From the NCBI GenBank assembly GCA_951406725.2, contig OX597839.1:17422001-17486000 (forward strand): a DNA stretch of 64,000 bases, in the 5' to 3' direction. Numbering within the stretch: position 1 is the first letter of the stretch; every line of letters starts with the position of its first letter. A program made the translations under genes and the position numbers. Positions 13,970 to 61,191 of this stretch are shown here, in pieces. The notes beneath the pieces were generated by a model. The model was not told the origin of the DNA and did not search any database. It saw only the letters and a list, made by a program, of their open reading frames with translations. This stretch comes from Octopus vulgaris. Its lineage: Eukaryota.

Positions 13970-14287
13970 TAACAGATGGAAAATGGTTTATTCACTACAG
14001 CTGTTTCAAACCAGTTTTTTTATTGATGAATAGTGTAATTACATCATGCAAAAGAAAAACACCATTTTCATCAGGTGAATATACACAAATTAAGCATTTT
14101 AGAAATAAAACATTTCAAGAATCAACATCATGTGCCACTTCATGATTCCTGGCTGAAACTAATTTGTGTATATTCCACCTGATGAAAATGCGTTTTTTTT
14201 TTCTTGCATGATGTAACCACACTATTCATCAATAAAAAAACTCATTTGAAACAGTTATAGTGAATGAACCACTCTCCATCTATTGCT
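13970..14287. repeat. Inverted repeat (~125-bp arms), PLE pLTR-like, each arm holding an HHR motif
   Basis: Arms 13970-14092 and 14160-14287 are reverse complements with scattered mismatches. Confidence 0.85.
13989..14081 (-). ncRNA. Type-I hammerhead ribozyme motif
   Basis: UAUUCAC-CUGAUGA-(stem II plus long loop)-GAAA-CAGCUG-UA-GUGAAUA: 7-bp stem I, palindromic stem III (ACAGCUGU), GUA cleavage triplet. Confidence 0.7.
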
Positions 14288-15499
14288 ATGTGTTTATTAT
14301 TCACCTTACTTGGAACCTGCAATTGGTGTGGATCTGCAATCTATTAAGCACAGTACAATTGGTACAGTGTGTGTTCCTATATAAAGCCTTGAGATTCGTA
14401 GTATATTCAATTGAGCACTCGTGATTGCATATGCAACTGGAATATATATCTGTCTGTACTTCAGTATGTACATATATGTTCCTCTAATTTTGCTTTGTAC
14501 ACAATTGCTATTTCTTTGATCCAAACTCCATGCTTTACTATTTAGGTACTTGATTCATTTGAATCCTGAACTCTTATATACACACATACATACACATATA
14601 TGTATACACATACATCATTTTGAAGTGTTCAAAGATGATTGTTCAGTTAATTCATCATTAAAATCACCAAATCATTTATCAGTCTACTTACATAATTGTC
14701 AATATAAAATTATTCATTTAAGCTCCTTCTTCAAAATTTTTTCTATCGATCTTACTGTTTTTCTACACACACACACACACTCTCTCTCTCTCTCCCCACA
14801 CACACATACACATACACACACAGGGTGCGGTAGAAGTAATACCCTTTATGCATTTAATAACTTTTGTAGTATAAATATGTTATTAAGTAATTTTTTATTG
14901 AACACAAATTTATTGCATTACTTAAAAAAGCAAATAATAAACTAATGAAAAAAATCACGAAGAGTAAATATGTAATGTGAGTTGATGTAAAATAGAGAGC
15001 ACTTTTTATTTCTGCTGCAGACACTCACTCTAGTCCTATCTATACTGTAAAGTCATTGGTGAGAGGTGAGTTATCCAGCTGTAAAATAGAACCATGTCAA
15101 AATGTAGAAAAGGACAAATGGGAGAGACATAGAGCAGTAAATAATACAATGTAGAGGAGACATTTTATTCCTGTTGCAGATAATTTTTTTTAGTGACTGT
15201 AGTATGGTAACATGTACCAATCCATTTTGTAAGGTTTGGTAATAGGGATGACAGGAAGCTGTCAAAAATCTATTCTAAAAGCAACAGAGACTGGCAACTA
15301 TCTTTGTTGCTAGGTTTGTGAGATGATAGGCCATTGGAACAGGACTGGGGATGTTGTAAGACCTAACCCATACAACCCATGTAAGCATAAATTGATGACA
15401 AAAATGATGATTGCAATAACAATGACAAGAAGTTGAGTCTAATTGCTTATGAACTGAGTAAGATGGAACAGAAAACTAAAAATATAAAAACTTTCTTAA

Positions 15500-16089
15500 C
15501 ACTTGACCTACCAACCCCATTTTGCACCATATTTTCTTTTGCACCAGCACTCAATTTCATTATAAGTTTTTCATTTATAACATTTTTCAACCATATATAC
15601 CTTCTAGTTTACTATATTAATTACCATATTGACTTATAAGCATGGGTCCCAGCAGTGACTCCTGTAACACAAAACAAATATTATAGTTAGTCTATACCAC
15701 AGGGTTTACTGTTAAAACATGTTAATATGCCTATTATAGCTCCATTTATGGACTTTTTTCATTTATTTATAGTTTTTTGCTACAGATTATATTTTAGATT
15801 ATATAAGCTTTAAAGGCTTCTTTTGCACAAAAATTATTTTATGGAAGGCAGCACTCCGATGATAGTGATGACAGTAACTTTCATCTTTCTGATATCAAAC
15901 CTAATCCTTCTAAGAGATACAAAGAAACAAGTGTTCTGTACATCTTCTAAAATTCAAATAATTTAGTTTGAACCACAGTAATGTGAGATTCCATAAAAAA
16001 CATCACCATTGAGAATCATCTGTGATTCCCATGGTACATTAAGATTGTAGCATGGGGAGTCAACAGTAATTCCCATGGTAGGCAAAGTG
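15500..16089 (+). mobile_element. piggyBac-like non-autonomous element
   Basis: TTAA|cacttgacctacca ... tggtaggcaaagtg|TTAA; subterminal attcccatggta repeats; acidic SDDSDDS-like remnant at ~15855; related end fragment at ~11055-11130. Confidence 0.7.
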
Positions 16090-16434
16090 TTAAAAGAAAC
16101 ATTAAAACAATTGTGTTATCATGAGACAATGAACAGACTGGTAAAATTTTGCCTCAAACTATGAACGTTCCGTCATCACTGTCATTGCTAATTTGATATA
16201 TACAAGCTGATGAAATAATAAACTCAGTAGAGTGACAATTAAATGACTTGTGGTATTTATTACATACCTTTACTTTCTGAATTTAAATCCTGCTAGAGCA
16301 GTCTGCCTTTCAGTTTTCAACTAATAAAATTAAGTACCAGTCAAGTATTGAGATTGGTATAATTGCTTACCATTCACCCTAAATTTGTGGTCAAGTGGTG
16401 TCAGAAATATACATACATGCTTATGTACTGTCTA

Positions 16435-16596
16435 GCAGTATATTCCTGATTATGATATAACTGGTCAGAAAGTTACCAACGTTTTCACAACAGCTATTAT
16501 CTGAGGAGTCATCAATATTTCCATATACAATACTTGGTGCAAAACCATTGGTCAATTTCTAGCCAGTTATATGCCATAACAAGGAATATAGTGCTC
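16435..16596. repeat. Imperfect inverted repeat (~55-bp arms)
   Basis: agcagtatattcctgattatgatataactgg.. versus ..ccagttatatgccataacaaggaatatagtgct. Confidence 0.6.
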
Positions 16597-16909
16597 AACA
16601 AGATAAGAGCATAATTACTTGTACTCTTTTTATAACTTATGAACAACTAACCAGTAATAGGTAAACACACACACACATTGTAATTTGTATGGGGAATTCC
16701 ATTAATTTCAGTTTTTGTCTGTAAAAATTGCTATGCATTATTTTCAAACTGATGCTTGGTATTTTATACTGAAATCATTCTTGTCAGTTAATTGGAAGAA
16801 ATATATTCTGTATAGGAAAACTTATTTAGTTTTGTAAAATAATTTTTGGCTGAAATAAGACTTCAACTCTTAGATTTACAATCTCTCTCTCTCTCAATAT
16901 ATATATATA

Positions 16910-17487
16910 TTTATCTCTACAGATTTTCTATAGAATTTGGAGCCAGCACTGAGGGTTACAACATTTCATATATGAATACATCTATGTAAACAATTCAATC
17001 GAAGATAGAAAAATATGCAAAGGGTGTATATACATAATTCAAGAGTTATTGCTTCTTCAGTACCATTAACTATTCACAAAAACATTGCTTAAAAAAACCT
17101 CTAAGTTTAGTGGTGTAACACTATTAAATAAACCAATTTACATCTTCAACACATTCCTGGTAACTGGTACATATATATGAATTGCTGGTAGGGACACAGT
17201 ATTTTGTTTTGCTACCATAATTGTTATGTGTGTACCAGTTGCTAGGAATGTATTTAGTATGTGAATTGCTCCATCCAGTAGTGTTACACTGCTAAACTTA
17301 GTAGCTATTTAAGCAATGTATTTGAGGATGTAGTGCTGAAGAAGGAGCAATAACTTCTGAAATATGCATATACACCTATTGCTTATTTTTCTGTCTTTGA
17401 TCTCATTGTTTATATAGACATTTATATATGAAATGTCATAACTTTCATTGCTGGCTCTAAATTCTATAGAAAATTTGTAGAAATAAA
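16910..17487. repeat. Large imperfect palindrome (~280-bp arms, ~20-nt loop), PLE pLTR-like
   Basis: tttatctctacagattttctatagaatttggagccagc ... gctggctctaaattctatagaaaatttgtagaaataaa; centre at ~17192-17211; the centre is copied again, inverted, at ~17560-17592. Confidence 0.85.
17330..17378 (+). ncRNA. Minimal hammerhead ribozyme motif
   Basis: gtagtg-CTGAAGA-aggag caataa cttct-GAAA-tatgcata-TA-cacc; palindromic stem III (ATATGCATAT); short stem I. Confidence 0.55.
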
Positions 17488-18813
17488 CTGAAAACAATGC
17501 ACCACTAACACAGAAGAAAGCAGTATTGACTTACAAACCTTTAATATACCTTGTAGTATATTATGGTTGCAAAACAAAATACTGTCTCCTACAAGAATAT
17601 ATCTATAGCGGGGTTGATTGGTACAGAATCTTGCCCCAGTGCTTATCCCTTATTTTTTTGTGAGATTTCTAAGTTGTTTAACTTTGTTCCATTATAGTTA
17701 TGTAGACAAATGAACATTCTAATATAGCAGTAAATGTTCATGGAGGACTTTGGGATTATATCTCTCAACCTAGACATTTCAAAATGTCTTACTTCCAGCA
17801 TATGTATGTCTCAGCTGTAATCAAGCAGTATTCTGCTGCTGTAATTCAATGTAAGCAAAACTGCATATTTCATCATCTTTTGCTGTAATACCAGTTATAA
17901 GTGATGACTTATAACAGCATTGAGAATGAATAAAACCAGCTCAACCCACCCCAGGTGAATGCTGTCTCAAGACAAGACAAGAAGAATGCCAGTTATCTTT
18001 CTCACCACTCTGAACTTCTTCACCTGACATCCATACCTCATTCTAAATATCGTCCACATTTTACATTGATCAGAGAGTGCTACCAAATTATCTCCCCTTT
18101 TCCACCATCATACGTCTCACTCTTCTCCACATGCACAACTTGTCTTCCCCCTCACATTCTTACAACTTACTCACCCACATCTTATCTGTCTTTTCTCCTA
18201 TCCTTTTCTTATCTACTATATCATTATTACTGTTCTACTGCTCTTTGTCTCTTTCTGTACTGTCAGTCATCACTTATTCTCCCCTATTTTCCCTACAACT
18301 TCTATGTATCAGCAATCACCCATTACCTTGCCCACCATTTTCTACAGCTACGCCTCAACCCTACCCAATCTCTACAATCATCACTTACTCTGCCCTACCT
18401 TTTGCCCAATATGTATTTATCATTGAGCACTCTTCAATTGTTATTTTACATTCATTATATTCATCCCTCACCCATTGTATAGACCTTTGCACTCCCTATA
18501 CAGTATTGTTATTTTTACTCACCTACAAAACTATTGATTATATTGACTTTTGAGATTGTTTAACCCATAGATTTATATAACAATATAAAGTGTCAAATTA
18601 TTGATGCTGTTGTACATTTAAGCCATATTTTCCAACTATAATTTATATATTTCAGTGGCATATCTGAAAATGGAAAATCAGTTCCTATGATCCTTTTAAA
18701 CATGTTTGTTACTGGTGGGAGGGAAAGATGATGTTACCCTCAGATTGGAGGCCTTGAACTTGTAACTAAGTGAATTCTGTTGAAATCACCCAGGAGTCAA
18801 GTATTGGTTTTAA

Positions 18814-19029
18814 CCCTTTAGCATTTAAACCAGCCATATCTGGTCCAAATACTTCACATGATTTATGTTCAAACCTGCCAGATCCAACCTGTCACACCTC
18901 CCCTACAATGTCATTCTAACAAACATTACATCGTTGAAATTTCAAAGCTATGATATAATACATGATTAATTCTAAACAATGTGAATAAATAAGCATTACA
19001 TTTGAGAGAGTCATCTGAATGCTAAAGGG
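18814..19029 (+). mobile_element. piggyBac-type MITE (216 bp)
   Basis: TTAA|ccctttagcatt ... aatgctaaaggg|TTAA. Confidence 0.85.
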
Positions 19030-20029
19030 TTAAACTAGGCAATGGATTAAGTCTACAGCTCAAGAGCAGGCAGGAGTTGATTGATTGCAGCTGTTTGGAT
19101 GCTGACGATGGGATACAGCTGACTGAACATTCAGCCTGTTTTGGTAACAGTACATTTTGGTGTTGGAGGCAAACACATATGCACAAAAATTTACATATAC
19201 AGATAGAAATTGTGAGAGACATTACTATTTGTTAATTGAACTCTCCTCATTCACATCATCAACATCATTTAACATCCATTCTCCGTGTTGGCATGGATAG
19301 GACAGTTTGACCAAAGCTGACAAGTAGGAGAGCTGCACCTGGTTCCTGTCTGATTTAGCTTGGTTTCTACAGCTGGATGCCCTTCCTAATAGCAACCACT
19401 TTACAGAGTGTGCTGGGGGATTTTTTATATGGCACAAGCATGGGAGATTTTTACATGGCACTAGCACAGGTGATTTTACATAGCGCTAGCACAGGGCTCT
19501 TGGAGGCCAGTCTTCTGCAGCAGAGGAACAGCATAAATAATTCTACTGTGGAGAACTGGTCTTCTTGCGTATAGAGGAGAAATATACTTACACACATAGA
19601 CTGAAAGAAAGAGAGAGAGGGGGGAGAAGGTGGGAAAAGAAGGAGGAATAGAAAAACATTAAAATATCTGATGTCAAAATAAGTCATTTCATCAATGATG
19701 CCAAACAGCTGTACCAAAATGTCTCATCATCCTTAGGGCATGAGATTTCACTGTGACAGGTTTCTCTCTAATGAATTTCACCTACAAATCTTTCATTGAC
19801 CTGAGGATTGGATAGATGACCCTTGCTCAAGGTACCACATAGTGGGAGCAAACTCAAAACCATGCTGTCACAAAGCTGATTTCTTAACCACCAAGCCATG
19901 TAGCATACTTAATGTAGCAAGCCTCAGAAATCTTAATAGAAAATTTATGCAGTGATGAAAACCACTGCATTATTTTACTCATTTTAGTTCATACAATAGA
20001 CAACTACAAGTATGTTTCAATCTCTTTAA

Positions 20030-20290
20030 ACCTTCTCAGCAATCTTTTTAACCATTGCTGTTAGTCATAAGTCCTTTTATTCTTATAGCTTCTTTCCTCA
20101 AACTGCCGCTCTTTGGAATTTACTACCCTCATCTTGTTTTCATGTGGTCTATGATATTCAGTCCTTAAATTTTTCTGTCATTCAGCATCCTTTGAGTTTG
20201 TAGATCTGTTCTTTACCTTCTCTGTAGTCCCTTACACTACAGTGACACCAAGCCTTATTTGGGACAGAATTGTGTATAAAAGAAAAAAAT
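20030..20290 (+). mobile_element. LINE (CR1/Jockey-like) 3' remnant
   Basis: FFPQTAALWNLLPSSCF-like C-terminal motif, followed by a UTR and an A-rich end. Confidence 0.45.
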
Positions 20291-22542
20291 CCACTTTATC
20301 AACTGCATAAGCCGCAATGAGATTTGAACCCAGAAAGTAAAGAACCAGAATAAATATTGATTTCAAATTTTGGCATAAGGCCAGAGAGTCAATTAGATCA
20401 ACCCCAGTTCTCAACTGGTACTTATACTATTGGCTTTGAAAGAATGAAAGGCAAAATTGATCTTGGTGGAATTTGTACTCTAAATGTGAAGACTGACAAA
20501 ATGCCACTAAGAGTTTTGCTTGGCATACTACTTCACTGCTTAAGTATGGTAAGACCAAACTTACAAAATTGCAGCAATGAGAGAATTATTATGTAGATAT
20601 ACAATACTGTATACAAATAGGCATGCCTATATTGTCTTTTATTGATGGTTAAATGTAGGTTTATTACAGTTAGAAATATATTTTGCATTTCAAGAGAAAA
20701 ATCTTAGCAACTTTGAAAATATATATTTGAAAGTGTTTTTTTTATTTTTGCTTATATTTTGAAAATTATATTAACTGAGAGTGAAATTATAATAGTCAAT
20801 TTTCAAAATGATTCTAGACATAACAAATACAAGTTTGTCTGACCTAGAGTAAGGAATTTTCTGGTTATCCAAATATTGTTTTAGTGTGGTGTATGAGTGA
20901 TTGATCAGTTGATTGATCTATTGCTTAAGGTTCATATTTAATGCAACACCAAGACTTTTGGCCTCATCAAAAATAGGAATGCTGGTGCCATTTAGACAGA
21001 TGTTTTCAATAATAAATTAATCATATTTTTTCAGCGATGGGAAAGAACTTATTATTTCAGATATTTTGGCATTTCTTTGAAACATTGACCATTCATCCAT
21101 TTATTGATATTTTATTAATAATGGCCAAAATATCATTTTTGAGAGTTTTCTATGAGAAGTGGTGGAATGGTAGGGGAGATCTGGGACACGTGAAGGGTTC
21201 AGTGATCACCTGGGTAACCATAGACTACGAAAACAAGACCTTTTAGTTAAGGTATGAAAATTGTAAATGTAAATATTGATTTTTTTCCCCTCTATTTACT
21301 TATTTTTTATTATTGTTATTTTTTATTATTGGCATGACGCCTCAGACTTATAGGTGAGTGGAGATAATAAAATTGTTCAATGTTGATGTCTTTCTCAAGA
21401 GTATTAACAATGCAAGTAAGCTGAAATAGATAGACTCAATTACTGAAACCAGAGCATAACAAGATCTCTATAAAACAGAAAAGAAAATAAGAAAAACAAA
21501 AAATAAAAGGAAAAGAAGTGACTGTAATAATATTTTTTTATTAGGGTAAAAATTATATTTATTTCACCCAATTTCAAATTGATTTTTTTCTGTTAAGGTG
21601 TCGGACCACATACTGACCAGATTGCCAACGTTACTACTACAGATATTGCGTGTGCTTTGTCTGAATATTAATATAATTCTGCTACTTGCTCCAGCTGACC
21701 TGATTGACATAAAACAGGTCCTAGGGAAGCAGATATGGCTATGTGGTTAAGGAGTTTAGTTCACAACCATGTGGCTTCAAAGTTCCAATTTTGATTACAT
21801 TAAGGACCGAGATATCTGGTACACTGCTGTACTCAAGAAGACTTGTCTTCCACAGTAGCATTGATGCTGGTGCTTGTGCCACATAAGAAGTACTTTCGCT
21901 GGTGCCACTTAAAAAGCACTGGTACTTGTGCCACATTAAAAGTACTGGTTCCACATAAAAATCATTCAGTATACTCTGTGGAGTAGTTGGCATTAGGAAG
22001 GGCATCCAGCCATAGAAACCATGCTAGAGCAGACAATGTAGCCTGGTGCAACCCCTGGTCTTACCAACCCCAGTCAAATTGAAAAATGGACGTTAAATGA
22101 TGATGATGATTATGTGTCTCTATGGATAGGGCACTTCTTCTGTAGTCTTGGTTCGCTAATATTTTGTGAGTAGGAATTTGTAGACTGAAACTGTATGGTT
22201 GCACATTGTGTATATATTTGTGTGTAGGAGATGGGGAGTACTAACAGATGGACAAAAAGCTAGATAGATGTATGTGGATGTGTTCATATATGCATATCTA
22301 TATGAAAGAATACAGAAGAAAGAGATGAACAGACAGACACACAGATAGATGTGTGCATGTGTTTTTGTACATATACTTGTATAACTAGCTTAAATTGGTA
22401 AATTGAGCTTAGTGATATTTATGTCCCTAAAAGATGTCACACAAATATAGGTGAACTTAGATACTTAGCTTGGCGTTGACCAATACATCGTTAGTGAAAT
22501 TTGGTAGGCACACACATCTATCTATCTCTATAACTGTTTGTA

Positions 22543-22587
<45 letters not shown>

Positions 22588-23438: not shown

Positions 23439-23483
<45 letters not shown>

Positions 23484-23712: not shown

Positions 23713-24245
23713 ATATATATATATATATACTCTTTACTCTTTATATACAGAGAGAATATATGTACTATGTGTTGTAAAGCATAACATGTAATCAAAGTTC
23801 TGCTAAACACAGAGGAAATAAATTAAAAGATAATATAATGTTTCAACAAACAATTATGTAATCCTGGCAGTTAATTTGTCAAAATATGTTTATGTTTTAT
23901 AAAGCATAAAATACTATATCACCATGAGAAGCAATCTATTTCTTGTCTTTCAAAGCTTCTTAGTTTGTGTGGTATAAACAACACTGGTTGTGTTTCAGTT
24001 AATTTTGGAAGCATAATGTGGTAACATAACTTTGTTGTTATGACACTGGTATTTGGAACATCAAATTAACATCAAATCTTGATTGAAGGTTTTAATTGAG
24101 TGTATTTAAGTACAGGAAATCTTTACCATGGACCTAGTGACAGTATCAGGCAAGCTGGTATCAGAAGACTCAAAACAATGTTTAAAGTGTGTGTATTTAC
24201 ATTATTTACATTTGATGGATATTTGTCCTCATCTTGTTTGTTGTT

Positions 24246-24291
24246 AACACAATGTTTCAGCTGATATATACTCCAGCCTTCATCAGGTGTC
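24246..24291 (-). ncRNA. Minimal hammerhead ribozyme in PLE pLTR
   Basis: GACAC-CUGAUGA-aggcug gaguauauau cagcu-GAAA-C(A)UU-GUGUU; stem III appears to have a CG>CA change. Confidence 0.7.
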
Positions 24292-24356
24292 TTGAAGAAA
24301 TTTTGATCTTGGGTTCTCATTCCTAAGGTATTTTTCAATGTTATTATTATTATTCG

Positions 24357-24429
24357 GGTCACTGCCTGGAATCAAACTGGAAATCTTGGGGTTAGTAGCC
24401 CATGCTCTTAACCACTACGCCATATGCCC
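24357..24429 (-). other. tRNA-like module (73 nt; Pol III A/B boxes) inside the PLE 3' region
   Basis: gggcatatggcgtagtggttaagagcatgggctactaaccccaagatttccagtttgattccaggcagtgacc; acceptor and T stems pair poorly, so it is not a functional tRNA. Confidence 0.6.
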
Positions 24430-24436
24430 ATGGACA

Positions 24437-25675
24437 ATTATGAAGTGAATTTTAGGGCTTTTAAATCTAATATTTTCCTATCCTTCCTTAATACTGGTTC
24501 CCATATGCTATTCATATCTACACTCAGTCTGCTTGGGAGGTTGTTATGTCCTAGCATATGTGCTGCTTCTTTTAGTTTTCATATTTTCCTGTAGTGTTCT
24601 CTGTCTATTATTTTAACTTCATTCAACAGGGGGAGGTGGTCTCCATTCATCTATACAAGATCAGCTATACTTGATTTATCAATATCTCCTTGTGTCACAG
24701 CTTTGCTATGTTCCTCTACCCTTATTTTGAGGTGGTGGCATGTTTCGCCTTTGTATAACCTACCATAGCTGCATGGGATAGAGTACATGCAGTTTTTGGT
24801 CATATTCTCTTTTATTGTTGATTTTACCCGAAGGACATATTTGTGAAGTGTTGTATTACTCTTGAATACTGTCCTGATGTCATATGGGCCACATATCTTT
24901 TGTATCTTTTCAGAGAGCCCTTTCAGATAGGGTAGACAGACTATAGACACTTTATTGGTTTCATCCTCTCTTTTCTTCATAATTGGAGTAGACAGTATGT
25001 TTTGGGGTAGTTGTTGCTTAATAGATTGTTACTTGAACTTGATCATTTCTTTGTGGTGGGTATCACAATCACTACTTATATTCTTTGCTCGATGTTTTAG
25101 GCACTGAGCAATTCCTCTCTTTACACTGTATGGATGGTGGGAATTGAAGTTTAAGTATCATCCAGTGAAGGTCGGCTTGCAGTATATGGATGTCCTGAAT
25201 CCATACTTGGTGTGTGTTATTAATACGTCCAGGAATGCTAGCTGATTGTCTTTTTCCTTCTCCATTGTCAACTGTGTGGATGGCTTTACTGAGTTCACAT
25301 GATCTAACAGCACTTGGACATCTTCCTGGTGGGACCAGAGAATAAAGGTGTCATCAATATATCGCAGCCTTAGGGCTGGCTTTAGTGGTGTTGATCCTAA
25401 ACCCAAATTCTCAAAGTATTCCATGTATATATTGGCTATTATCGGTGATGAGTGCAAACCCATAGCTAAACCCTCTTCTTGCCAATATATATTAGTGTCC
25501 ATACTGAAATAGGTACTTTCTACACAGAAGGTCCAAGGTTCCATCAAGTTTCTTATTGGTATACTCGTGTGTTCTTTTAGATGGGTGTGTGTCACTAGTT
25601 TTTCTTGAATCACCAATAGTGCTTCACCAGTTGGGATTTTGGTGAACAGACTTATCACATCTACAACAAACAAGA
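24437..25675 (-). pseudogene. PLE RT/GIY-YIG ORF, disrupted
   Basis: ORFs 25158-25673 and 24651-24980 plus read-through segments containing stops and frameshifts. Confidence 0.88.
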
Positions 25676-26976
25676 TGAGGACAATTAGTCGTCAAATGTA
25701 AATAATGTAAATAATTCGTCATCTCTTAAATATAGACCTGTATTATTATTTACATGGTTGTAAAGGTGCATGGCCTAATGGTTAGGATCTTAAATTCACA
25801 ATCACAAGATCATAATTTCAATTCCAAACTAGGCAGTGTGTTATGTTTTGGAGCAAAGCACTTCATTTCACTTTGCTCCAGTTCATTCACCTATAAATGA
25901 GTAACCTCGCATTCAACTGGTATCCAGTTTCAAATAGTACTTTTTTTACTATGTTACTATATAATCTTCAGTCATCACCAGATACTTTATTTTTGGATGT
26001 GTACATACTATTAAATTAAACCCAAACTGGAAAACTTCATTTCTAAAATTCCTTGTAAAGTTTATAGTAATATTCTTAAGTTAGAGCTAAAGGTTCTCTA
26101 GTTTAAATTCAATAAGAGATTGTAAAAACACCCAGGAATAAGACACTTGAGAGCAATGTCAGACCAAAGTGATGGAAACATAGTAGAGATGTAAATATTG
26201 AAATATATCTCATCCATTTATGTATTGTGCTTAATGTAAATACATTGTGACATGTGAAATTTACTGTGGTATTGGATTTCATCTAAGCATTGCTGGCTGT
26301 GAGTATATGTTATTGATAACACCCAATGAGGTGGGAAAACATCTCAGTTGGGGTGAGTTCCTATCATCCTCCACTATGCACATATTGTGTTTCTAAACAC
26401 AATGCATCTATTGGAGATATTATCTCTGGAGGAAAATTTTACTTAATGTATGTACATTGAATATGATACAGAAATGGCTATTTTAATCTTATACTGCTTC
26501 TGTTGCACATAACATTTTTCATAATTTCCAAAGACATCATTAATAGTTGTAAAAATTTGATTATGAACAATCTCAAATATTAAGATCTGTGGTTCACTCT
26601 AGGTCAATCAAAAAAATTTACTAGAATTCTTTGCACTGAAAGTTTTACAAAATATTTTAAAGTAAAAAATTTAGAAAAAATATATATAGAAAATTATTGG
26701 CTGGTTTTATTAATCATACTTAAATGTAAAATAATGAATAAATTTTTTTTTCTTTCTCTCAGATATCTAAATATTAATATGGATTTGCTCTTCTAAAGAA
26801 CAAAATTACATTTTTTTAAAAATTTGTAGCACACCATTTAAGAAACACTGGATTAGACATTTGATAAAAAAGATTTAATTTGATTAAGAATATACCATGT
26901 AATCCAACTTTAATCACGTTTTATTATGAATTTTTAACATCACAAGAGTACATATGTATGTAATATATGTATGTAT

Positions 26977-28704
26977 GTGCTACTGGTAACATAAAATCCA
27001 GTACAACCTGTTGCATGGTCAGGTTATTGGTGACTAAACCAGCACCCCCACCCTGCTATCCTGGCAAAGAGAGTTGCTAGAAACGCAGCAAGATTAAAAA
27101 TAAGACCTGTTGAAAGGTCGGACGAACCTAGTGCAGGCTCAACAGCTATCTAGCCAGAATAATGTGTGGTAACTACAGGGGTATTGCTCTATCAGCTGCT
27201 GGCAAGGTTCTAGCAAACATTCTTCTTACCTGCCTGAATGGGTGTCTTGTAAATAATATTCTAGCTGAATCTCAATGTAGCTTCCATTCTGATAGAGGGA
27301 CAATGGATATGATATTCACAGCAAGACAGATGCAAGAGAAGTGCTATGTGCAGAATGTGGATCTTGTCCAGGTATTCCTTGATTTAACCAAGGCCTTTGA
27401 TACTGTGAATAGGGCCTTGTTATGGAAAATACTTGGCAAACTTGAATGTCTGAATCACTTTGTATATATAATTAAATCATTTCATGATGGGATGGAGGCT
27501 TGGATCAATGCTGGTGGTGGCATGGCGGGACTCATTCCTGTAGAGAATGGTGTCAAGCAGAGTGACATCCTTGCCCCAACTCTTTTTACTTTGTACTTTG
27601 CCGCTTTTACTCATGCTTTTGCTAAGGTTAACTCTTTGGGAATATATGTCAGGTATTGATCTTCTGGCCACCTCTTTAATCTGCACTGATTTGCTACCAA
27701 TTCAAAAGTTTTCAAGTCTCTTACTTGTGACCTCCTTTATGCAGATGACTGATTTTGTCATTCATACAGTGGATGACATACAAATACTTATGAATTGTAT
27801 TTCTGCTTCCTGCAAGGCATTTGGACTCAGCTTTAGCCTGGACAAGACTGTTGTAATGTTCCAGCCTGCACCAGGAAATCCATATGCGAAACCAGCTATC
27901 TTGGTTGAAGGAACAATACTGAAAGTGGTAGACAAGTTTGTCTACCTGGGCAGCACACTCAGCTGTTCTTGCTCCCTGGACAATGAAATATCTTTCAGGC
28001 TGCAGAGAGCAACCAATTCCTTCTGGTCTTTTCAGTCTCATGTCTGGTCCCAGCATGGCATCACATGGCAAACAAAAATTGTTGTGTGCTGTGAATGTGT
28101 ACTGACATCACTCCTTTATTCATGGGAAATATGGACTCTTTACAAACATCATGTAAGTACTTGAGCACTTTCATCAGATATGTCTGAAACACATTCTGAA
28201 TGTTGGCTGGACCTTAAAAACCCCAGACACAAGTCCTGAAGAAAGCTGATATCTTGAGTATTGAGGCAATAATTCACAAGCACCACTTACATTGGAGTGG
28301 ACACTTTATTAGAATGAAGGATAGCAGGATCCCTAAACAGAAACCAAGGCAGATATAAGGTCTGTGTCAAGTCCTCATTAAAGGCCTGTGATATGCAGGA
28401 GACTGACTGGGAGTGCAATGCCTGTCATCACCACACATGGAGGAAGCAGTTTAAGGAGGGGGTTGACACCTTTGAGAGAGCACGTATTCTGCATGAAGAA
28501 TTTAAGCATGCTGCTCAAAAGTGCACTGCTAGTGTAGTGAATGGGGAAAGCTTGGTTTGCAATGTTTGCACTCATGTATGCTTGTCAAGAGCAGGGCTCA
28601 TTAGCCACCAATGGAGCCACAAAGGCAAAATATGTTAGTCCTAAAGTGCACAATATTTGTAAAGGTCAGCAATGGTCTTCCTCAGTCATGAGTGGATGGC
28701 CATC
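26977..28704 (+). mobile_element. RTE (BovB-like) LINE, degenerate, lacking the endonuclease region
   Basis: CGNYRGIAL, ESQCSF..RGTMDMIF, FLDLTKAFDTVNR, GVKQSDILAPTLF, LLYADD, FVYLGSTLS, and a C-terminal CNVC..C.SRAGLISH zinc knuckle. Confidence 0.9.
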
Positions 28705-43092: not shown

Positions 43093-43708
43093 AGAATAAG
43101 TACCAGGTTTTACTAAAATTTATAAGTATGAGGTCAATTTGTTTGACTAAAATTCTTCAAGGCGGTACCCCAACATTGCCACAGTCTAATGACTGAAACA
43201 AGTAAAAGATATGTGTGTGCGTGTAAAGCAATTGAGAAGGGATCAGATAATCCAGGTGTTTACCTCTGGCAGCATTCCCATGAGTGCTAGCTATATGAAG
43301 TTGTATAAACAAGAATTTCTCCTGTAGTACTGTAGATTTCAATCAATCATAAAATCCAGGTTTATTTCTGTTGCAGAGTATAAATAATAAGTGAAGAATG
43401 GAGTAACTACTATTACATGTATTCCAAAGTTTTACAATTGATTATATTCATTTGTTTGGTTATGATTAAATGACTGTGGAGGTTTTATGTAATATACAAG
43501 AATATATCATTGTTCTTATCAGTGTCTAAACACACAATGTTTGATTTGTCATCCACACTTTATTAAGACAGTTCTATAATATAGAATAAATGCAATGTCA
43601 ACTACTCAATGCTTCACCTATTATGTATGTGTGTGTGTGTGTATATACATACATACATATATATATATTATATAAACCAAGTTTATCGAGTGCGGTACTT
43701 TTTGAAAA

Positions 43709-43813
43709 GTCACCTGATGAAGCATTTCTGTACTGAAGGATGCACCGCAATTAGTTGCATAGTATTTCATCTGCAAGTGACAATGCAAAATGTGTCAAAA
43801 CGATCGTTGTGAT
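43709..43813 (+). ncRNA. Degenerate hammerhead ribozyme motif
   Basis: tcac-CTGATGA-agcattt...aaatgtgtc-(A)AAA-cgatcg-TT-gtga; G12 mutated to A; palindromic stem III (ACGATCGT). Confidence 0.5.
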
Positions 43814-44749
43814 TATTCAATAATCTCATGAATTCCATTTTCTTTCTCTCATCTGTCTGTGTATGTGTGTGTGTGTTTGTGTATACACACACGGACACAA
43901 ATATGATAGCCACAGGCATATATGTTTCAGAATTTTGCTTCACAACCACAAGGTTTCAAGTTTAGTCCCACTGTGCAACACCTTGAGCAAGTGTCATCTA
44001 CTATAGGCCATCCAAAGCCTTGTGAATGTGTTTGGTACATGGGAAACAAAAAAAAGCCCATTATATGTATCTTTATATATATCTATGCATACATGTGTGT
44101 ATGTATGCATACATGTGTGTATGTATGCATGTATGTGTGAGTGCATGCATGTGTCTCAGTGTGTTTGCTGCCATTTATACGTCTAAAATAATTGAGTTAC
44201 AAGAGTTGATGCTATTGTCATATGCTCTATCAAGGAATAATTCACTGTCTCCATGAATGATGTGTAGAGTAAGAAGCCCCTTATTTATAAAGCAGTTTAT
44301 GATTAAAGAACAGGGAATGTATATAGCTATAAAACATTGTCTTAATAATCTTTTTTACTAAAAGCTTAATAAGTGAAGAATGGAGTTACTTATGTAACTA
44401 ACATCAAAAGGATGAAAGGCGAAGACAACCTTGGTAGAACTTAAACTTAGAATATAAAGTCAGAAGAAATACTGCTAAGCATTTTATCTGGCTTGCTAAT
44501 GATTTTATTAGCAACCAACACTAACGTATAAATGACCACAAAAATAAACAAATGAATGAACACAATATATCTATAGACTTTAATATGTCTGTAGATTTTA
44601 GCCAACAGTGTATGTAAGAGACAGATGTAAATCTCTTACCTTTACACACAGTATCTTTGTGGGCAAATAAAATTGCAGTCATCTTGAGTAGATTCAACTC
44701 CATATTTGGATTTCAGTCTAGTGTTGGGATTTCATCAGTGACTAAGAAC

Positions 44750-45139: not shown

Positions 45140-46215
45140 ATCTCAAAAGCCTTCATCCAGGACTCTACACAATCCTTAAACTGTAGTGTTGGTTTCTGCT
45201 AGGGTCACTTTCCCCAAACATGTCCACCATATAGCATTGATTGTGTAGAGTCCTTGATGAAGGCATGTAAGATATGGAAGGTCAGTTGGGAAAGCAATGT
45301 TTGCCATTGTCACTAGTGGAGGAAACAAATAAAGGCAGGCATGGGTATTTTTGAAGAAACACCCATTTTTCCTGCTGAACTTAAGCAAGTTGTTTGAAAA
45401 CGCACTGCCAGTGTAGTGAATAGGGGAAATTTACCTGGTCTAGTGTAGATAGTGCGCAACCATACAAGAGCTGGTGCTTCAAATCAAAGATGCAGTGTGA
45501 CCTTTGTTTGAGTGAAGAATTGAGAATTTTGACTCAAGGCAGTTATAGTTTGAACAAAAGAACTGAGCTGTTAAGCCTTGTATGCATGTGGCTAAGTATC
45601 TTCTATGCAAATACGAACCACCTTGAATTTCATTCTTGTTCAGGAAAAAAAAACATTCATTTCAAAATATTTGATCAATAGGCTTTATTGATGTATATTT
45701 TAATATGTCTGGGTGCATGTCAATATGTGCATATGTATATGCATGTGTTTGCTCAGGTTCATGTAAAATAAGCACCCATATACACATACATTGTTTTTAA
45801 AATACATTAATTAAAAGTATTACTTCAAAGTATTACTTTGACACATTGCTTAAACAGCAACACAATTTCATGACTTCACTTGTATGGAGTTTAAGACATT
45901 TCTGATAATATTATCACGAGAACCAGAAATGAAATCAAAAGCATGAGCTCGAAGCAGCTGTTTTTGCACATGCCATTCACAAAGGTTTTCAAACAGAAGA
46001 ACCGAAGGATAAGCATTTTTTTCAAACTTTTATTTCAAAAAATATGCAGACAGTGCATATTTCAAAAGAAAACCAGGGCTGATTTACCAGCTGATGATCA
46101 GAAATAAATTACTCTGGGTACTAGAAATCAGAGCCTTTCAGTTATGATGTATTAAAGAATACCATACATTTGTATTAAGTCTTATAATTTATTGCTTCTG
46201 GTGAGTAAATCAACA
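45140..46215 (+). mobile_element. Penelope-like element 3' remnant (second PLE family)
   Basis: CDLCLSEELRIL..SLNKRTELL..CMH..KYLL resembles a PLE endonuclease C-terminus; weak HHR-like ttaccag-CTGATGA...ctggtga at 46084-46204; flanked by (TA)n. Confidence 0.6.
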
Positions 46216-47413: not shown

Positions 47414-48034
47414 GTATATATGTGTATATATGTATATATGTATATATGTATATATATATATATATGTATATATATATGATTTGACTGGGCCTGATGAAGC
47501 CTTCTGGCTTCACAGACCCCAGTAGAACCGTCCAACCCATGCTAGCATGGAAAACGGACGCTAAACGATGATGATGATGATGATATATGTATATATGTAT
47601 ATATATATGTATATGTGTATATATATATATGTATATGTATATATGTATATGTATATATATATGTATATGTATATATATGCATATGTATATATATGTATAT
47701 GTATATATATATGTATATATAATGTATATATGTATGTATATGTATATATGTATGTATATGTATGTATATATATGTATATATGTATGTATATATGTATGTA
47801 TATGTATGTGTATATATGTATGTATATGTATATATATATATATATGTATGTATATATATGTGTATATATACACATAAACACACACACACACATATATATA
47901 TACATATATACATACATACATACATATATACATACATATATCTAAATTAAATAATAAGGGTAGAAATTGATGTTAATCAATTAAAACCAGTGGCTTAGCA
48001 TATTTAAAAATCTGAAGATTAAAAATTGTGTTAC

Positions 48035-48557
48035 AAAATTAAGAGGAATGAGCACTAAAGTGGACACCCTATATGCTAAACATAGACGTCAAATCACCAT
48101 TACCACGAAGAATGTGTTCTCAAGAAAAAAAATCTCAGCAAAACACCAAAATGTAAAAATGAGCTAGACAAATGAAAACATACGAAATAAAAATGATTAC
48201 CTACGTACCATTGGTTTCACTTGTTAATATCTATGTATATAAACATGAACATATCTGCAAGGTCATCAGCGTAATTTGTCACTTACAAAACACAATTTCC
48301 AGAACTAGATAAAGAATGCTCAACTAAAATTGATCATATATAAAGTTCTGCAAATTATATTTGGGTATATTCTTTCAAATACCTTCACTTTGGCATGCTG
48401 AGGCCGGAAATTACTCTGCAGTTAATAAATTTCAGCAGCCAATTTATCAGTTAGAGAACATTTTTTTCTTGAGAACACATTCTTCATGGGTAATGGCGAT
48501 TTGACCTCTATGTTTAGCATATGGGTGTCCACTTTAGTGGTCATTCCTCATAATTTT
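48035..48557. repeat. Inverted repeat (~98-bp arms) enclosing an HHR; PLE pLTR-like
   Basis: 48035-48132 is the reverse complement of 48461-48557; a related fragment lies at ~37310-37345. Confidence 0.85.
48201..48274 (-). ncRNA. Type-I hammerhead ribozyme motif with intact core
   Basis: UUACG-CUGAUGA-ccuug...caagu-GAAA-CCAAUGG-UA-CGUAG. Confidence 0.7.
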
Positions 48558-48626
48558 ATATGTATATATATGCATATATATATGCATATATATATATATA
48601 TATGCATATATATATATATATATATA

Positions 48627-50173: not shown

Positions 50174-50204
<31 letters not shown>

Positions 50205-53447: not shown

Positions 53448-53482
<35 letters not shown>

Positions 53483-53960: not shown

Positions 53961-54013
<53 letters not shown>

Positions 54014-54855: not shown

Positions 54856-54911
<56 letters not shown>

Positions 54912-54922
54912 CACACACACAG

Positions 54923-54962
<40 letters not shown>

Positions 54963-55463
54963 TACAAATATACAAACGTTTACTCTGTTTTATTATAAAG
55001 GGCCATAATTCAACACACCAATTATTTATATCTGTATACATGCATGCGTGTGCATACACTCTCACTTTCTTTCTCTCTCTGCACACAGTTTTAAAAGGAG
55101 TGCTTTTATATTTATAAAAACACCAGCATTAACTGAATAAAAGAGGCTCAGTATAAGCATAGTGTTTGATATTTCTAATAATTTTATTGATAGTGATTTT
55201 GAAGTTTGGCTGAGTGATTGCTTTAGTCAGATAGTGTGCAAAAGCAAGTTTTGTTTCCCATCATATTGTTCAATGTGAGGCTAGAATAGAGGACACTTGC
55301 TTGTAATGGTTGACACTGGGGTTGAACTAAAAGCTATGAGTATAGCAAGCAATCATCTTGACTGCTCTGCTATTTTTATTTTAGTTGTAATTTAGAAAAT
55401 GACTGCCAGTATCACCCAAGGGTTGTATGCATTCTACCAATAGTGTTTATGCAGAATGCTCAA

Positions 55464-55746
55464 CAGTGATTCCCAATGTGGGGCCTGGGAAAATTGTGGT
55501 GGGGCATGGTACCATAGTTGTCAGGTACAAGGTTCTTATTAAAGTGTGTCACTTTTTTCTTAGTCAATAATGTACTCTTTTTATACTCAGTACTTAATAA
55601 AAGAGTTACTGGTAGATTCTTTTCTATTAAATAATCGTGATTAAAATCATAAAAGTAAAGTTGGTTTTTCCTACCACTGGTGGGGGCCTACATTTTTCTA
55701 GAAAGTTATAGAAAGGCCTGAAGGGAAAATAGGTTGGGAAACACTG
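55464..55746. mobile_element. hAT-like MITE
   Basis: TIR cagtgattcccaa / ttgggaaacactg; no TSD preserved. Confidence 0.55.
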
Positions 55747-55929
55747 ATCTACAGGGACAGGCATAAACTCTGAAGTCCTGAAAAGAGCCAGTCTGCATGG
55801 CCTTGGCCTGCAGGAGATTGTGGTGTGGAGAAGAGTAAGAGTTTTCCAACTACCATAAGAACAAATATCCAAAAAAGATACCCAAGAAGAAATGGCATGT
55901 TACCTTCAAAGAAGATCCAATGCAACTTA

Positions 55930-56156
55930 TTTCTTTACTGCCTGCAAGGGGTTACACACAGAGGGGACAAACAAAGACAGACAAATGGATTAAGTCAATT
56001 ATCTCAACCCCAGTGCGTAACTGGTACTTATTTAATCGACCACGAGAGGAGGAAAGGCAAAGTCGACCTTGGCAGAATTTAAACTGGGAACGTAGCGGCG
56101 GACGAAATACCACTAAGCATTTCGCCCGGTGTGCTAATGTTTCTGCCAGCTCACTG
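55930..56156 (-). mobile_element. SINE family B
   Basis: Reverse complement of 42860-43092. Confidence 0.8.
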
Positions 56157-56454
56157 CTGTTTTTCAGATGGTGCTAAGTTGCATCAGAAAATTGCAGGCA
56201 ACTCTGCTCAGAACAGAGATGATGGAAATGTCTTCCTGTCCAATGTACAGGCTAACTGTAAGGGTGGGACTAAGACTGAAACCAACCATAGACTCGTCCT
56301 CATACTGAGTATTTAAAGTGTATTATTATTATTATTGTTGTTATTGATGTTGCTGCGATCCAAAGTAACCCTGATTACATAGGCCTGCAGTCAAAGATTT
56401 TCCATCTGTAACTACCATGTCTTAGGTTGTTTAGATATGATCTATGTAGGATTA

Positions 56455-56671
56455 CGAGGGTATGCTGAAAAGTTCCTGGCTTTAAGGGTATCGCGAAAGG
56501 CTTGGTTGGAGGCCCAACCTTCTGAGTTCTTTTACAGGGCTTAGGAAATCTGAAGGACCACTGCAATAAGTGTGTGAATCTGAGAGGCGAATATGACGTA
56601 TAAAATCATAATTAACTGATCCTCCTGTATTTTATTTGACCCAAAGCCAGGAACTTTTCAGTATCCCCTTT
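56455..56671 (-). mobile_element. Mariner-derived MITE, best-preserved copy
   Basis: TA|cgagggtatgctgaaaagttcctggcttt ... aaagccaggaacttttcagtatccc. Confidence 0.8.
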
Positions 56672-57467
56672 TACATTAATCCAGTTTGATCTTCCTTTTT
56701 TTTTTGGTTTTTTACTTCAACTAGTTGCATTCTTGTTTGATGGAGATTTGACTGCTATTTTTTGCAGGTTAAGTGATCACATAAATCCTCATTTTTGTCT
56801 TATTTAAGGTGTGTAGGTCAGTATCTGTGATTGGTTTGGATAGTCATGGGAATGGTGTGTGGGCATAATTCAACATCTGTATGATTCATATGCATTTTGA
56901 TAAGCTGCTACATGTTAACAATTGAGATAGTGGGAGTTATAATGCATGTAGCAATTTAAGGGATCAGGTTTAAAATATACAGGCATACATCAACTTAGTT
57001 CATAATTGGTTTCAAGACACGCAACTTAACTTGAAAAAGTGTAATAAGAGAAAACGTTTTAAAAATTAATTAGTTTTATATCTGTTTTATAAATGGTTTG
57101 TACATATTTTCACATGTATCTTATTTGATTTTCCACTTCGATATTGGTTGTTGTTGGTGTATTTAAAAAAAATTTTTATGCTTTTAAATATATTTGCAGA
57201 GACCACTGTAAAGTCAGATAAATCAACTGGAGTTAAGGTTTATTTTTGCAATTAATTTCTTAAAACAAGCAACCAAGTCAAAAACAATGTGCCTTTATTT
57301 AGCAATTCAGAGGATAAGAGTTGAAATATCATTATCAGTTAAGTTGATGACACTTTCAATTGTCATCATCATCTCATTTTAACTTTCATTTTCAATGCTG
57401 GCATGAGTCAGACAGTTTGACAATAGCTGACAAGCCAAAGGACTAGACCAAACTCCAATGTCTTTAG

Positions 57468-57680
57468 CTCTTTCGTTACCAAATTTCTTTTGAAAGACTG
57501 CTTTTGTTTTAATTAATTTTGAAAATGATGAAGTGTTTAGTAAAATAACTTAGTCATTGTTAAGATGGAGTCTAAAACAACATTGAATTTTGACGGGAAG
57601 TTTGAATTTGAGTCATTTTAAAGCAGCCAGTTAGCATCATGGAACAAAGGGCAGTCTTGGACAGGTTGGTACTAAAGCAA
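57468..57680. mobile_element. Old TTAA-type MITE
   Basis: ttag|ctctttcgttacca ... tggtactaaagcaa|ttaa. Confidence 0.4.
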
Positions 57681-57819
57681 TTAATGTAATTAGAAATTCA
57701 TGGGACAAGATTTGTAATGTAGATATTAATTCTAACAATAAGAGTAATGAACATATTAATTAATTGCTGAACATATTAGATATAATGATTTATATATATA
57801 TGTTATAATGCACTTATTG

Positions 57820-58720
57820 TTTAAAGTGCTCAGGTGCACTATAACTCAACAGAAAAATGTAGCCAAAAGTGTGTGAACAGTACATAGAATAATGCACAGG
57901 AAGTGAACAGTGAATGAGTCATTACAAAAATGTGTGGTGGGGGCATCAGGTGTACTTGTTGGCAAATTTCAGGAAGTATGGAAGTTTTGAAGGATATGGT
58001 ATCCTGACAGCTAACAACTGATGAAGGTAGTTTATTCCATGCTTCAGCTATTCTTAGCATCAAAAAATGTTTCTGAAAGTCATGGGTGTTGTGTTGTTTT
58101 TTGATTTGTAAGCATGTCCACCAGTGTTAGACATGGAATTCAAAAGGTACCCAAGGTTGTTATTGGAAAGATGATGGATAATCTTGTGGGGGTCTACCAA
58201 GTTAGTTGCCAGATGTCAGAGCTTTAATGTATCTATGCCCAGGGAAGCAAGACATTCAGTGTATGGTAGATGCCTGTGATGGTGGGTATTCATAATAATA
58301 GTAATAATGAAATTATTGTAAACAGTGCTCAGGTGCACCACAACTTGTCAGAAAGTGCGTATAAAGTATATGCAGTAATGTACAAATGTCTGGAAAGCAA
58401 ACAATGTATGAGTCAGATACATGCTTGTGTGTGTGTGGAGGGGAGAAAATCAGGTGAAAATCTGGTTGCATGTTTCTGAACAGTTTCCAGGAGATTGATA
58501 TACTGAGCAAGATAGGGGATTCATACAGGTGATGCAAACTCAGTGGACATACCATAACCATACACAGTTTTAAATAAATAGCTGAAGAGACAAAAGTCTT
58601 ACAAATTTAGAGATCTGGTTTGTCCAACTCAAATCGCTGTTGACATTTCCTTATATATACAGTGTACTAAACTGAGTTTCGAATTTCTCCATGGAGAAGA
58701 TGCTGAGAAGTAGATATTTG
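57820..58720 (-). mobile_element. CR1-type LINE 3' part with a nested short copy of its own 3' UTR
   Basis: EFASPV*IPYLAQYINLLETVQKHATR | 3' UTR copy with (TAT)n tail | HLPYTECLASLG..LRIAEAWNKLP. Confidence 0.8.
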
Positions 58721-59454
58721 GTATATTTTTTCCTCTCCCACAAATCTCATTGCAAAATATGACATTTACTCAAGGTTGCCTTAACCTTATCATATCTCAC
58801 CAATCTCTGTGTGTTTTCACTCTATCTCATGTGTTTTCTATCTCTATATGTGTTCACTCTATCTCATGTTTATATCTATTTGAACTTAGCACCTTCATAT
58901 AACAACTGGAAAGGCTTTTCAACTTGATATTTTTTTCCCTACTTGTGTTGAAGTTTATTGTTGATGAAAGGTAGCATAGTTGTTACTATGATGTGTTTTG
59001 CTAAACACAATTTCATATTTACATTTTACAATTCTTTTCCATTTCTATCTTATTTTTTTGTTATAAGTATGTCTTTTTTATTTTTATTTTTATTTTATTT
59101 TAAATTACTACATTTATATTTTAATTTTTTTTAATATTTTACTCCAGCAAAAATTTTTCATATAATTTCAGAAATTTTATTTCAAAATTGTTTGAACCAT
59201 TTCAATTTCTTAGACACGATTCAAAAGATTTTCACATAACACTGGAAGAAACGAAATAAATAAATAAATAACCCTGAAATATTCAACATCATACTTTATG
59301 TATTTACTTGTCTGTATATGTATACATTGTGTGTAGATATTATGTATGAGGGAGGTATATATTATATATACAGACACAAATATATACACACATACATGTA
59401 TATATATTTGAATATGTATATAAATGTATACATATACATAATTGTACATATGAA

Positions 59455-59537
<83 letters not shown>

Positions 59538-60192
59538 ATGTGTATACACATATAATTGTAATATATATGTTTATAAATAATCTTTCTTTCTCTGTGTGTG
59601 TATATATATTTTTATGTATGTTTACATATATATAGAGAGAGATTTATATATTATGTATATGTTTGTAAATGTGTTTTTGTGTGTATGGTTAAATGTATGC
59701 ATATGTATGTGCTCTTTGTGTATATATCTTTGTGTGAATTTATTGTTTTTTTTAATCTATTTTAGGAATTCACAAATTGAAAATATTAATCTTATTGAAT
59801 CTATCAAAGAAATCAAATTATTTTACGTATAGCTATTACTGTTTTAGTGAGTGAGGATGTGGTGGTGTTAAAGCCTTACCATTGTTACAAGTATCAGATT
59901 GGAGTAGTTGCAACATTAGTATTGCTGCATCAATTATCAGGGAGGTGTTACATCCTTATCTTTGTTACACCAATTAGAGGAATGTCTTATAGCTATATCA
60001 TTGTTACAACTAACATCAGGGTGGTTTCACAAATTTTAAGCATTCTAATGGTCGTGTTATTTAGAGGTTTGCTTTGCAACTGCATTTTTTTTTATGGGTG
60101 TGGGAGTGTTTAGTCCCACTCCATGATACCCTGGGCAAATTTCTTTAAACTTCTGCTATGGCCATGGGCTGACCAATGCCTTGCGAGTGACA

Positions 60193-60232
<40 letters not shown>

Positions 60233-60411
60233 TTTCTCATTTTTTTTCTACTTGCCACTCCATCATCATATGTCTGAAAAGTGATGGAATTTATTCAAGT
60301 TTCAGAAATGGTAAACAAAAGTTGTATATGAAAAATAGAGCTACAAAAAAAATACCTATAAAACATTATGATAAAAATATTTTTTGTGTTAATTCAAATG
60401 AAGGGGAAAAA

Positions 60412-60713
60412 ACAAATTTATCTGTCAGACAACTCAGGACACACACACTCACACACACATATATATATATGCATGAGTGAGTGGACAAATGAAAGAAAAG
60501 GACACTCAACACATTTAGTAGGAGTTACATGTATTATTTAAAACAGCTTGATTCGGTTCCGTGTGGCTTGAAGTTTTGCAGGCTCCTATGGGAACGTTTC
60601 TCTTTCAGATTCCTAACATTAAGCAATCCAAAACCTGAAAGTGATGGGCTCCTGTTAGGGGCCTGTGAAACTTGAAGTTGCACAAAACTGAATCAAACTG
60701 TTTTAGATTTTAT

Positions 60714-60744
<31 letters not shown>

Positions 60745-60872
60745 ACGGGAAAGTTTACGAAAATAAACAAAAGACAAAGGCAGGTGGAGTACAAACAAAC
60801 AAATGTTAATACATTTGTTTGTTTGTACTCCACCTGCCTTTGTCTTTTGTTTATTTTCGTAAACTTTCCCGT

Positions 60873-60905
<33 letters not shown>

Positions 60906-61039
60906 ATAAAATCTAAAACAGTTTGATTCAGTTTTGTGCCAAGCCACACGGAACCGAATCAAGCTGTTTTAAATAATACATGTAACTCCTACTAAATGTG
61001 TTGAGTGTCCTTTTCTTTCATTTGTCCACTCACTCATGC

Positions 61040-61072
<33 letters not shown>

Positions 61073-61124
61073 AGTGTGTGTGTGTGAGTGTGTGTGTCCT
61101 GAGTTGTCTGACAGATAAATTTGT
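60412..61124. repeat. Near-perfect fold-back (inverted) duplication
   Basis: Left arm 60412-60806, spacer taat, right arm 60811-61124; the right arm lacks 60571-60679. Confidence 0.95.
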
Positions 61125-61153
61125 ATAGCGCTCAGGAATAGAAATAGAAAAAG

Positions 61154-61191
61154 TCTTTTACGTTTCGAGCCTACGCTCTTCGACAGAAAGA
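61154..61191 (-). ncRNA. Hammerhead-like motif with a non-canonical core (CUGUCGA)
   Basis: UCUUU-CUGUCGA-aGAGC guag GCUC-GAAA-CG-UA-AAAGA. Confidence 0.5.

Follow-up and report, generated by a model that had tools for sequence, protein, structure and literature searches.

The window analysed here, a 64,000-nucleotide stretch of the Octopus vulgaris genome (contig OX597839.1, positions 17,422,001 to 17,486,000), contains six real hammerhead ribozyme motifs of the minimal type-I kind found in Penelope-like elements (PLEs). We consider it probable that they mark six decayed Penelope-type insertions, each with a hammerhead near its 3' end: three belong to families linked to PLE coding sequence (F1, F3 and F6), two to families of units without an open reading frame (ORF; F2 and F5), and one (F4) could be linked to neither kind. 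The window has 34% GC and is rich in (TA)n and (CA)n, the host genome measures 2.8 Gb, and repeats within the window were mapped by self-BLAST with microsatellites masked. The features concerned are listed by window position, with pLTR denoting the pseudo-long terminal repeat of a PLE.

13961–14575: F1 head-to-head module; the minus arm stops at the main 3' end and the plus arm has a long tail.
13989–14081, minus strand: F1 minimal type-I hammerhead, core intact, stem III ACAGCUGU; apparently the 3' end of a coding PLE, decayed and Hydra-like.
14171–14266, plus strand: F1 mirror hammerhead, decayed, with a bulge in stem I and a broken stem III.
16910–17590: F2 head-to-head module of a permuted, ORF-less unit of about 407 nt; the minus arm stops at +117 (main end) and the plus arm enters the tail.
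17330–17378, plus strand: F2 hammerhead, core intact, stem III AUAUGCAUAU.
24246–24291, minus strand: F3 minimal hammerhead, core intact, stem III decayed to ACAU.
24355–24434, minus strand: tRNA-like head opening the F3 pLTR, with an A-box match at 24422–24412 and a B-box match at 24377–24369 (one change here).
24447–25691, minus strand: 5'-truncated Penelope/Poseidon-like ORF (reverse transcriptase (RT), thumb, GIY-YIG-like) with several in-frame stops; Pfam RVT_1, E 3.7e-08.
25663–25740, plus strand: F3 inverted arm at the truncated 5' end, carrying a tail of about 30 nt that the direct arm lacks.
43673–43856, plus strand: F4 solo 3' end between microsatellites, with a hammerhead at 43709–43813 carrying G12A.
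45962–46215, plus strand: end of an F7 repeat, in which CUGAUGA and GAAA occupy 46091–46130 without a type-I fold.
47944–48470, minus strand: direct arm of F5, which covers the 531-nt unit almost completely, from -261 to +264 relative to the predicted cut, and stops at the tail end.
48201–48274, minus strand: F5 hammerhead, core intact, stem III ACCAAUGGU.
48462–48564, plus strand: inverted arm of F5, which abuts (TA)n at its main 3' end (+176).
60412–61124: near-perfect fold-back duplication, which interrupts the F6 copy and contains the F6 3' end (60728–60908) together with some 335 nt of flanking sequence.
61111–61211, minus strand: F6 pLTR piece, with a hammerhead at 61154–61191 (CUGUCGA core), forming the 3' end of a coding, Neptune-like PLE.

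An earlier sequence-only reading of the window had proposed at least six such motifs with unrelated flanks, and all of them are present. A strict type-I descriptor (exact core, stem I of at least 5 bp, stem II of at least 4 bp) finds three, at 13989–14081, 24246–24291 and 48201–48274, all on the minus strand, a number equalled in 0 of 431 block-wise dinucleotide shuffles (mean 0.035, maximum 1). The hammerheads at 43709 and 61154 are recovered once one core change is tolerated, and those at 17330 and 14171 fall outside the strict descriptor because their stem I is bulged; the family majority sequences of both fold as proper hammerheads. Each of the six motifs seeds its own genome-wide repeat family and no sequence is common to the six; the proposal of PLE-type hammerheads from independent families is borne out. 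First-look searches gave 780 candidates for F1, 1560 for F2, 2977 for F3, 481 for F4, 1409 for F5 and 191 for F6, which are not copy numbers because only 40 were scored and 30 loci taken per search. The majority sequences of F1 to F5 all show CUGANGA, stem II, GAAA and UH closed by stem I, and that of F6 is a paired hammerhead with a U6 core.

The single core changes previously noticed at 43709 and 61154 are different in kind. The F4 majority reads CGAAA, and G12A is decay of the window copy, as are ACAU for ACGU in F3 and the broken stem III of the F1 mirror; A6U is family-wide, position 6 being T in 53 of 55 readable F6 copies and A in none. Hammerhead core variants are reportedly covered by Lunse et al. 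2016. Stem III is self-complementary generally, as had been claimed, with the exception of 24246, where it reads ACAT and is no palindrome; the palindrome ACGT is found in 4 of 28 parsed F3 copies. The stem-III strings form self-duplexes and give no monomer hairpin, and the hammerheads of these families are predicted to cleave themselves, as dimers. The weak hammerhead proposed at 46084 did not survive: it lies in a seventh repeat family (F7, 270 first-look candidates) that keeps CUGAUGA and GAAA and has no UH plus stem I after GAAA. F7 does contain four mutually complementary segments in a non-standard hammerhead order, possibly a rearranged form. Another CUGAUGA, at 47491 on the plus strand, lies within a very common unrelated repeat, has no stems and fails the descriptor.

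A PLE ORF of the RT plus GIY-YIG type lies upstream of the pLTR in F3 and F6, an endonuclease remnant does so at two F1 loci, and F2 and F5 have neither. Among other ORF-bearing copies of F3, 27 of 29 run on into the tRNA-like head and 25 of 29 into the hammerhead. The F3 pLTR is ordered as A- and B-box matches, (AAT)n, hammerhead and tail, and the box matches, judged against what we take to be the tRNA-type A/B-box consensus, are present in the family majority. F6 leads through a pyrimidine-rich untranslated region (UTR) of about 700 nt into a coding frame of 356 aa with a CPCCRTC linker and a GIY-YIG-like motif, the endonuclease ORF being reached in 6 of 30 upstream-selected loci; the linker fits Neptune/Nematis as defined in the available text of PMC8557442. 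F1 has a long AT-rich UTR. At two loci, endonuclease remnant, UTR and hammerhead are collinear, and intact F1 relatives elsewhere in the genome carry the CNCRxxxxC (CxCx5C) linker of the Hydra clade together with similar hammerheads. These two loci and the linker motif suggest that F1 is the 3' end of a Hydra-like coding PLE.

Several further PLE loci were noted. A head-to-head F1 insertion of about 6.8 kb (L299:1319-8151) has a Hydra-like endonuclease remnant at its centre. A group of Hydra-like PLEs (L443-L466) has an ORF with long asparagine-rich inserts and hammerheads with 8-nt stem-III palindromes, and a young PLE family (L417-L441; 97% identity, 2496 candidates) showed no hammerhead of its own in a type-I scan within its loci. 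F4 extends about 560 nt upstream, and in its long stem II and its ACGAUCGU palindrome it is similar to the Hydra-like relatives. PLE ORFs joined to F4 sequence at two loci (L336, L337) were considered as its parent and rejected, being parts of other families, whose 3' ends differ.

The short F3 copies could be more than products of truncation, namely a SINE-like (short interspersed element) subfamily that RNA polymerase III would produce from tRNA-type boxes in the pLTR. We regard this as a serious possibility while leaning against it. The box matches stand at the very start of the pLTR, and of the hammerhead-selected copies 21 of 29 have their start no more than 25 nt away, and just 2 extend further upstream. 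However, a short palindrome lies at the same point and could halt reverse transcription or seed an inversion, neither ARAGORN nor Rfam called the head as a tRNA, and the head is continuous with the coding element in the 27 of 29 copies mentioned above and is therefore not a separate SINE. Use of the head by RNA polymerase III is, on its sequence, a guess. Our literature searches found no paper on a tRNA-headed pLTR.

F5 and F2 are organised as ORF-less units. In both, the sequence downstream of the ribozyme recurs upstream, closing circularly permuted units of 531 nt (F5) and about 407 nt (F2), in which the longest stop-free sense frames have 41 and 45 codons, respectively; an antisense frame of 106 codons in F5 is without support. 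Copies longer than one unit were 16 of 29 in F5 and 6 of 28 in F2, in sets chosen with long queries; of pattern-selected F5 arms, 2 of 87 reach a full unit upstream. Two of 29 F5 loci each hold two ribozymes, at spacings of 530 and 534 nt, no two whole units occur in the sampled loci, and the longest sampled arm measures about 915 nt. A 24-letter F5 pattern, with one mismatch allowed, matches 243 places versus 2 for a control pattern. A decayed F2 mirror hammerhead lies near 17020–17066 on the minus strand. Stems II and III of F5 covary between subfamilies, both pair partners being altered: C-G becomes A-T in stem II, and the centre of stem III goes from AATT to GATC, with pair 4-7 being G-C in 26, A-T in 13 and other in 6 of 45 copies. 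As the stem-III centre is a loop in the monomer and a helix in the dimer, this pattern fits selection for dimers. In contigs of four presumed RNA runs the F5 unit is represented by short pieces, which are uninformative on strand, ends and circles. It is likely that F5 and F2 units were copied in trans by a PLE protein.

The anatomy of the insertions bears on the same point. True head-to-head modules surround four of the six motifs (13961–14575, 16910–17590, 24194–25740 and 47944–48564), so the description of the copies as inverted-repeat modules holds for these; it fails at 43709, which has no inverted arm in the window, and at 61154, where the palindrome is a separate downstream fold-back and not an F6 module. 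The arms of that fold-back are identical in three blocks (38, 95 and 31 bp), with a 109-bp deletion in one arm, and it stems either from a recent template switch or from an assembly artefact. Among sampled loci, the share with an inverted arm was 7 of 28 for F1, 4 of 27 for F2, 25 of 29 for F3, 6 of 29 for F4, 12 of 28 for F5 and 3 of 29 for F6, a minority in five families, with F3 the exception. Copies of F5 end at two fixed points from the predicted cut, at about +173 (main) and at +255 to +270 (tail). After setting aside 15 of 50 F5 head-to-head modules with an eroded end, the 35 classifiable ones comprised 32 with one main and one tail end, 3 with two main ends and none with two tail ends (P 1.7e-7). 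Eight F2 modules were found, and five of the six classifiable ones join main to tail; the four window modules obey the same one-arm-tail rule. A tail on one arm only is a mark of the PLE reverse transcriptase, and the palindromes are a known by-product of PLE insertion. Because the ribozymes of a module lie on opposite strands, they cannot dimerise within one transcript; read-through of a head-to-head module would give a long hairpin.

The 5' ends of F5 were compared with the predicted cut. In one sample 3 of 29 copies had a 5' end no more than 2 nt from it, a signal that was not repeated in a larger set of 87 arms, where 4 had their start at the cut versus about 2.6 expected (P 0.26), with no pile-up, and 83 started upstream of position -2. 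An apparent pile-up at -25 to -33 is partly accounted for by divergence of the subfamilies in loop II. The 5' ends also cluster at -245 to -274 (9 of 26 arms at risk), several of these being inverted junctions at T-run/A-run microhomology, as in the window copy. With no detectable pile-up at the cut, the F5 templates were mostly uncut tandem RNA or re-ligated circles, and the DNA pattern is alike for both.

F5 and F2 might then be true retrozymes, whose tandem transcripts cleave themselves into monomers that are ligated to circles and copied by a PLE reverse transcriptase, a proposal we find somewhat unlikely. Circular permutation and copies exceeding one unit would follow from it, as would the reading of 83 of 87 arms through the predicted cut, which a ligated circle would give; covarying ribozyme stems in an element devoid of protein, and the first sample of 5' ends, point the same way. 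Yet an uncut tandem linear transcript yields the same DNA pattern, the PLE substrate in vitro is mainly uncut RNA (PMC11167929), no sampled F5 arm contains two units, and the larger sample showed no excess at the cut. A broader version joins this to the F3 proposal: F5 and F2 would be hammerhead RNA circles that use borrowed Penelope machinery, are copied from a pair of fixed start sites (one for each DNA end) and remain under selection for cleavage as dimers; in addition, one coding family of Penelope elements would have captured a tRNA-type promoter, its end repeat spreading as a ribozyme-carrying SINE. That combination we hold to be doubtful.

The suggestion that these are non-coding PLE derivatives stands for F5 and F2 and fails for F3, F6 and F1. 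Extended to all six families as non-coding, non-autonomous derivatives it is very unlikely: most copies in every family are indeed short and ORF-less, and most F3 copies start at one point, but F3, F6 and F1 continue upstream into PLE coding regions, which contradicts it for F3 and F6, and the 5' ends of F1, F4 and F6 are ragged, as in truncation. Because three of the six families lead upstream into PLE coding sequence, a missing ORF beside a copy is mostly a matter of 5' truncation. Chance matches in AT-rich DNA can be dismissed: monomer folding energies were not significantly better than those of shuffles (z -1.8 to +0.6), no hammerhead model appeared among the 150 of 320 Rfam window matches listed or in a further Rfam scan, and a relaxed-descriptor match at 19097 is probably fortuitous, yet the shuffles never reached the observed strict count, cores and stems are the family majority, and F5 covaries.

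The reading of the window as six decayed Penelope-type insertions has points against it as well. The clade names (Poseidon-, Neptune- and Hydra-like) come from linker motifs compared with the available text of PMC8557442 and not from a tree. Pfam recognised neither the F6 protein nor the F3 endonuclease, the coding linkage of F1 consists of two decayed loci only, and two protein searches with the F1 endonuclease remnants returned no database relative. Three walks along F4 revealed no ORF and no closure of a unit. F5 and F2 share no sequence with the other families that would identify an autonomous partner, and no same-strand upstream PLE ORF was found at their loci. Finally, the stem-I covariation of F5 could be CpG decay, and its subfamily double changes represent few independent events.

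For these insertions we favour a mechanism modelled on PLE biochemistry (PMC11167929). A PLE protein would cut AT-rich DNA and begin cDNA synthesis at either of two fixed sites inside the RNA, and most cDNAs would stop early, leaving only the ribozyme-bearing end. Where both DNA ends prime, one per start site, the two cDNAs would be joined head to head into a palindrome whose tail lies on one arm. Cutting by the ribozymes would occur only in dimers that pair via the stem-III palindrome, within tandem transcripts made from the source element, and the inserted template would be mostly uncut or re-ligated RNA. The window copies themselves are probably inert.

Other elements in the window include a broken mariner-type transposase (2638–3579, plus strand; Pfam HTH_48) and a broken LINE-type (long interspersed element) reverse transcriptase (27132–28638, plus strand; Pfam RVT_1, E 3e-14). 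A 166-bp tandem repeat of 4.1 copies (8434–9114) adjoins an assembly gap. A plus-strand frame at 9331–9777, without a Pfam match, resembles a Helitron/PIF1 helicase fragment.

The features seen here are of a published kind: the literature already describes minimal hammerheads in PLEs, pLTR truncation, inverted arms and non-autonomous retrozymes derived from PLEs. Our literature searches found no study of octopus PLE hammerheads, and the supplements of PMC4209133, PMC8557442 and a 2026 preprint (Li, Clavereau and Pollet 2026, 10.64898/2026.07.22.740005) may list cephalopod families or core variants. According to the available text of Cervera and de la Pena 2014 (PMC4209133), animal PLE pLTRs carry minimal type-I hammerheads, and their cleavage is weak and depends on dimers. 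The octopus families resemble those described there in the many unrelated families per genome, mostly solo motifs ascribed to truncated PLEs, in opposite-strand pairs 100–700 bp apart, and in a palindromic stem III and an extra base before stem II. They differ from that text in the 8–10 nt palindromes of F1, F2, F4 and F5 and in the long stem-II inserts of F1 and F4, and the family-wide A6U of F6 is not among the variants it gives, a comparison that did not extend to Lunse et al. 2016.

With endonuclease-bearing (EN+) PLEs, as far as the available text of PMC8557442 and PMC3846280 goes, the insertions share 5' truncation, an inverted 5' arm, a tail at one end only and the (TA)n bias of Neptune and Hydra. 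They also share the two internal RT start sites (PMC11167929), the distance between which equals the tail in vitro; in the same study of an anole PLE, uncut RNA was the main substrate. The tails described in the accessible EN+ texts are 30–40 bp, compared with about 90 nt in F5, about 120 nt in F2 and more than 200 nt in F1. The tRNA-type boxes opening the F3 pLTR are a further difference; F3 is like a tRNA-derived SINE in having internal A- and B-box matches at its 5' end and unlike one in that its head is not separate from an autonomous element.

Animal non-LTR (long terminal repeat) retrozymes have been proposed as non-autonomous PLE derivatives, with units of 51–972 bp and many monomer-only copies (available text of PMC7229834 and of 10.64898/2026.07.22.740005). 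F5 and F2 are like them in being ORF-less, low in GC and a few hundred bases long with a type-I hammerhead. They differ from the retrozymes as described there in that sampled copies span 0.3–1.7 units instead of long arrays, and in their PLE-type dimer ribozymes and direct PLE insertion marks. Non-autonomous PLEs of Chlamys such as MRC1 (PMC8557442, available text) are also alike, being short, forming pLTRs and occurring as head-to-tail copies; their 3' end is similar to that of an autonomous family, whereas no partner was found for F5 and F2. The ORF-less F5 joins PLE insertion marks (two fixed ends and a one-arm tail) with covarying ribozyme stems. This combination supports the proposed, unproven link of animal retrozymes to PLE machinery, and it offers natural substrates of small size for the in vitro PLE system already available.

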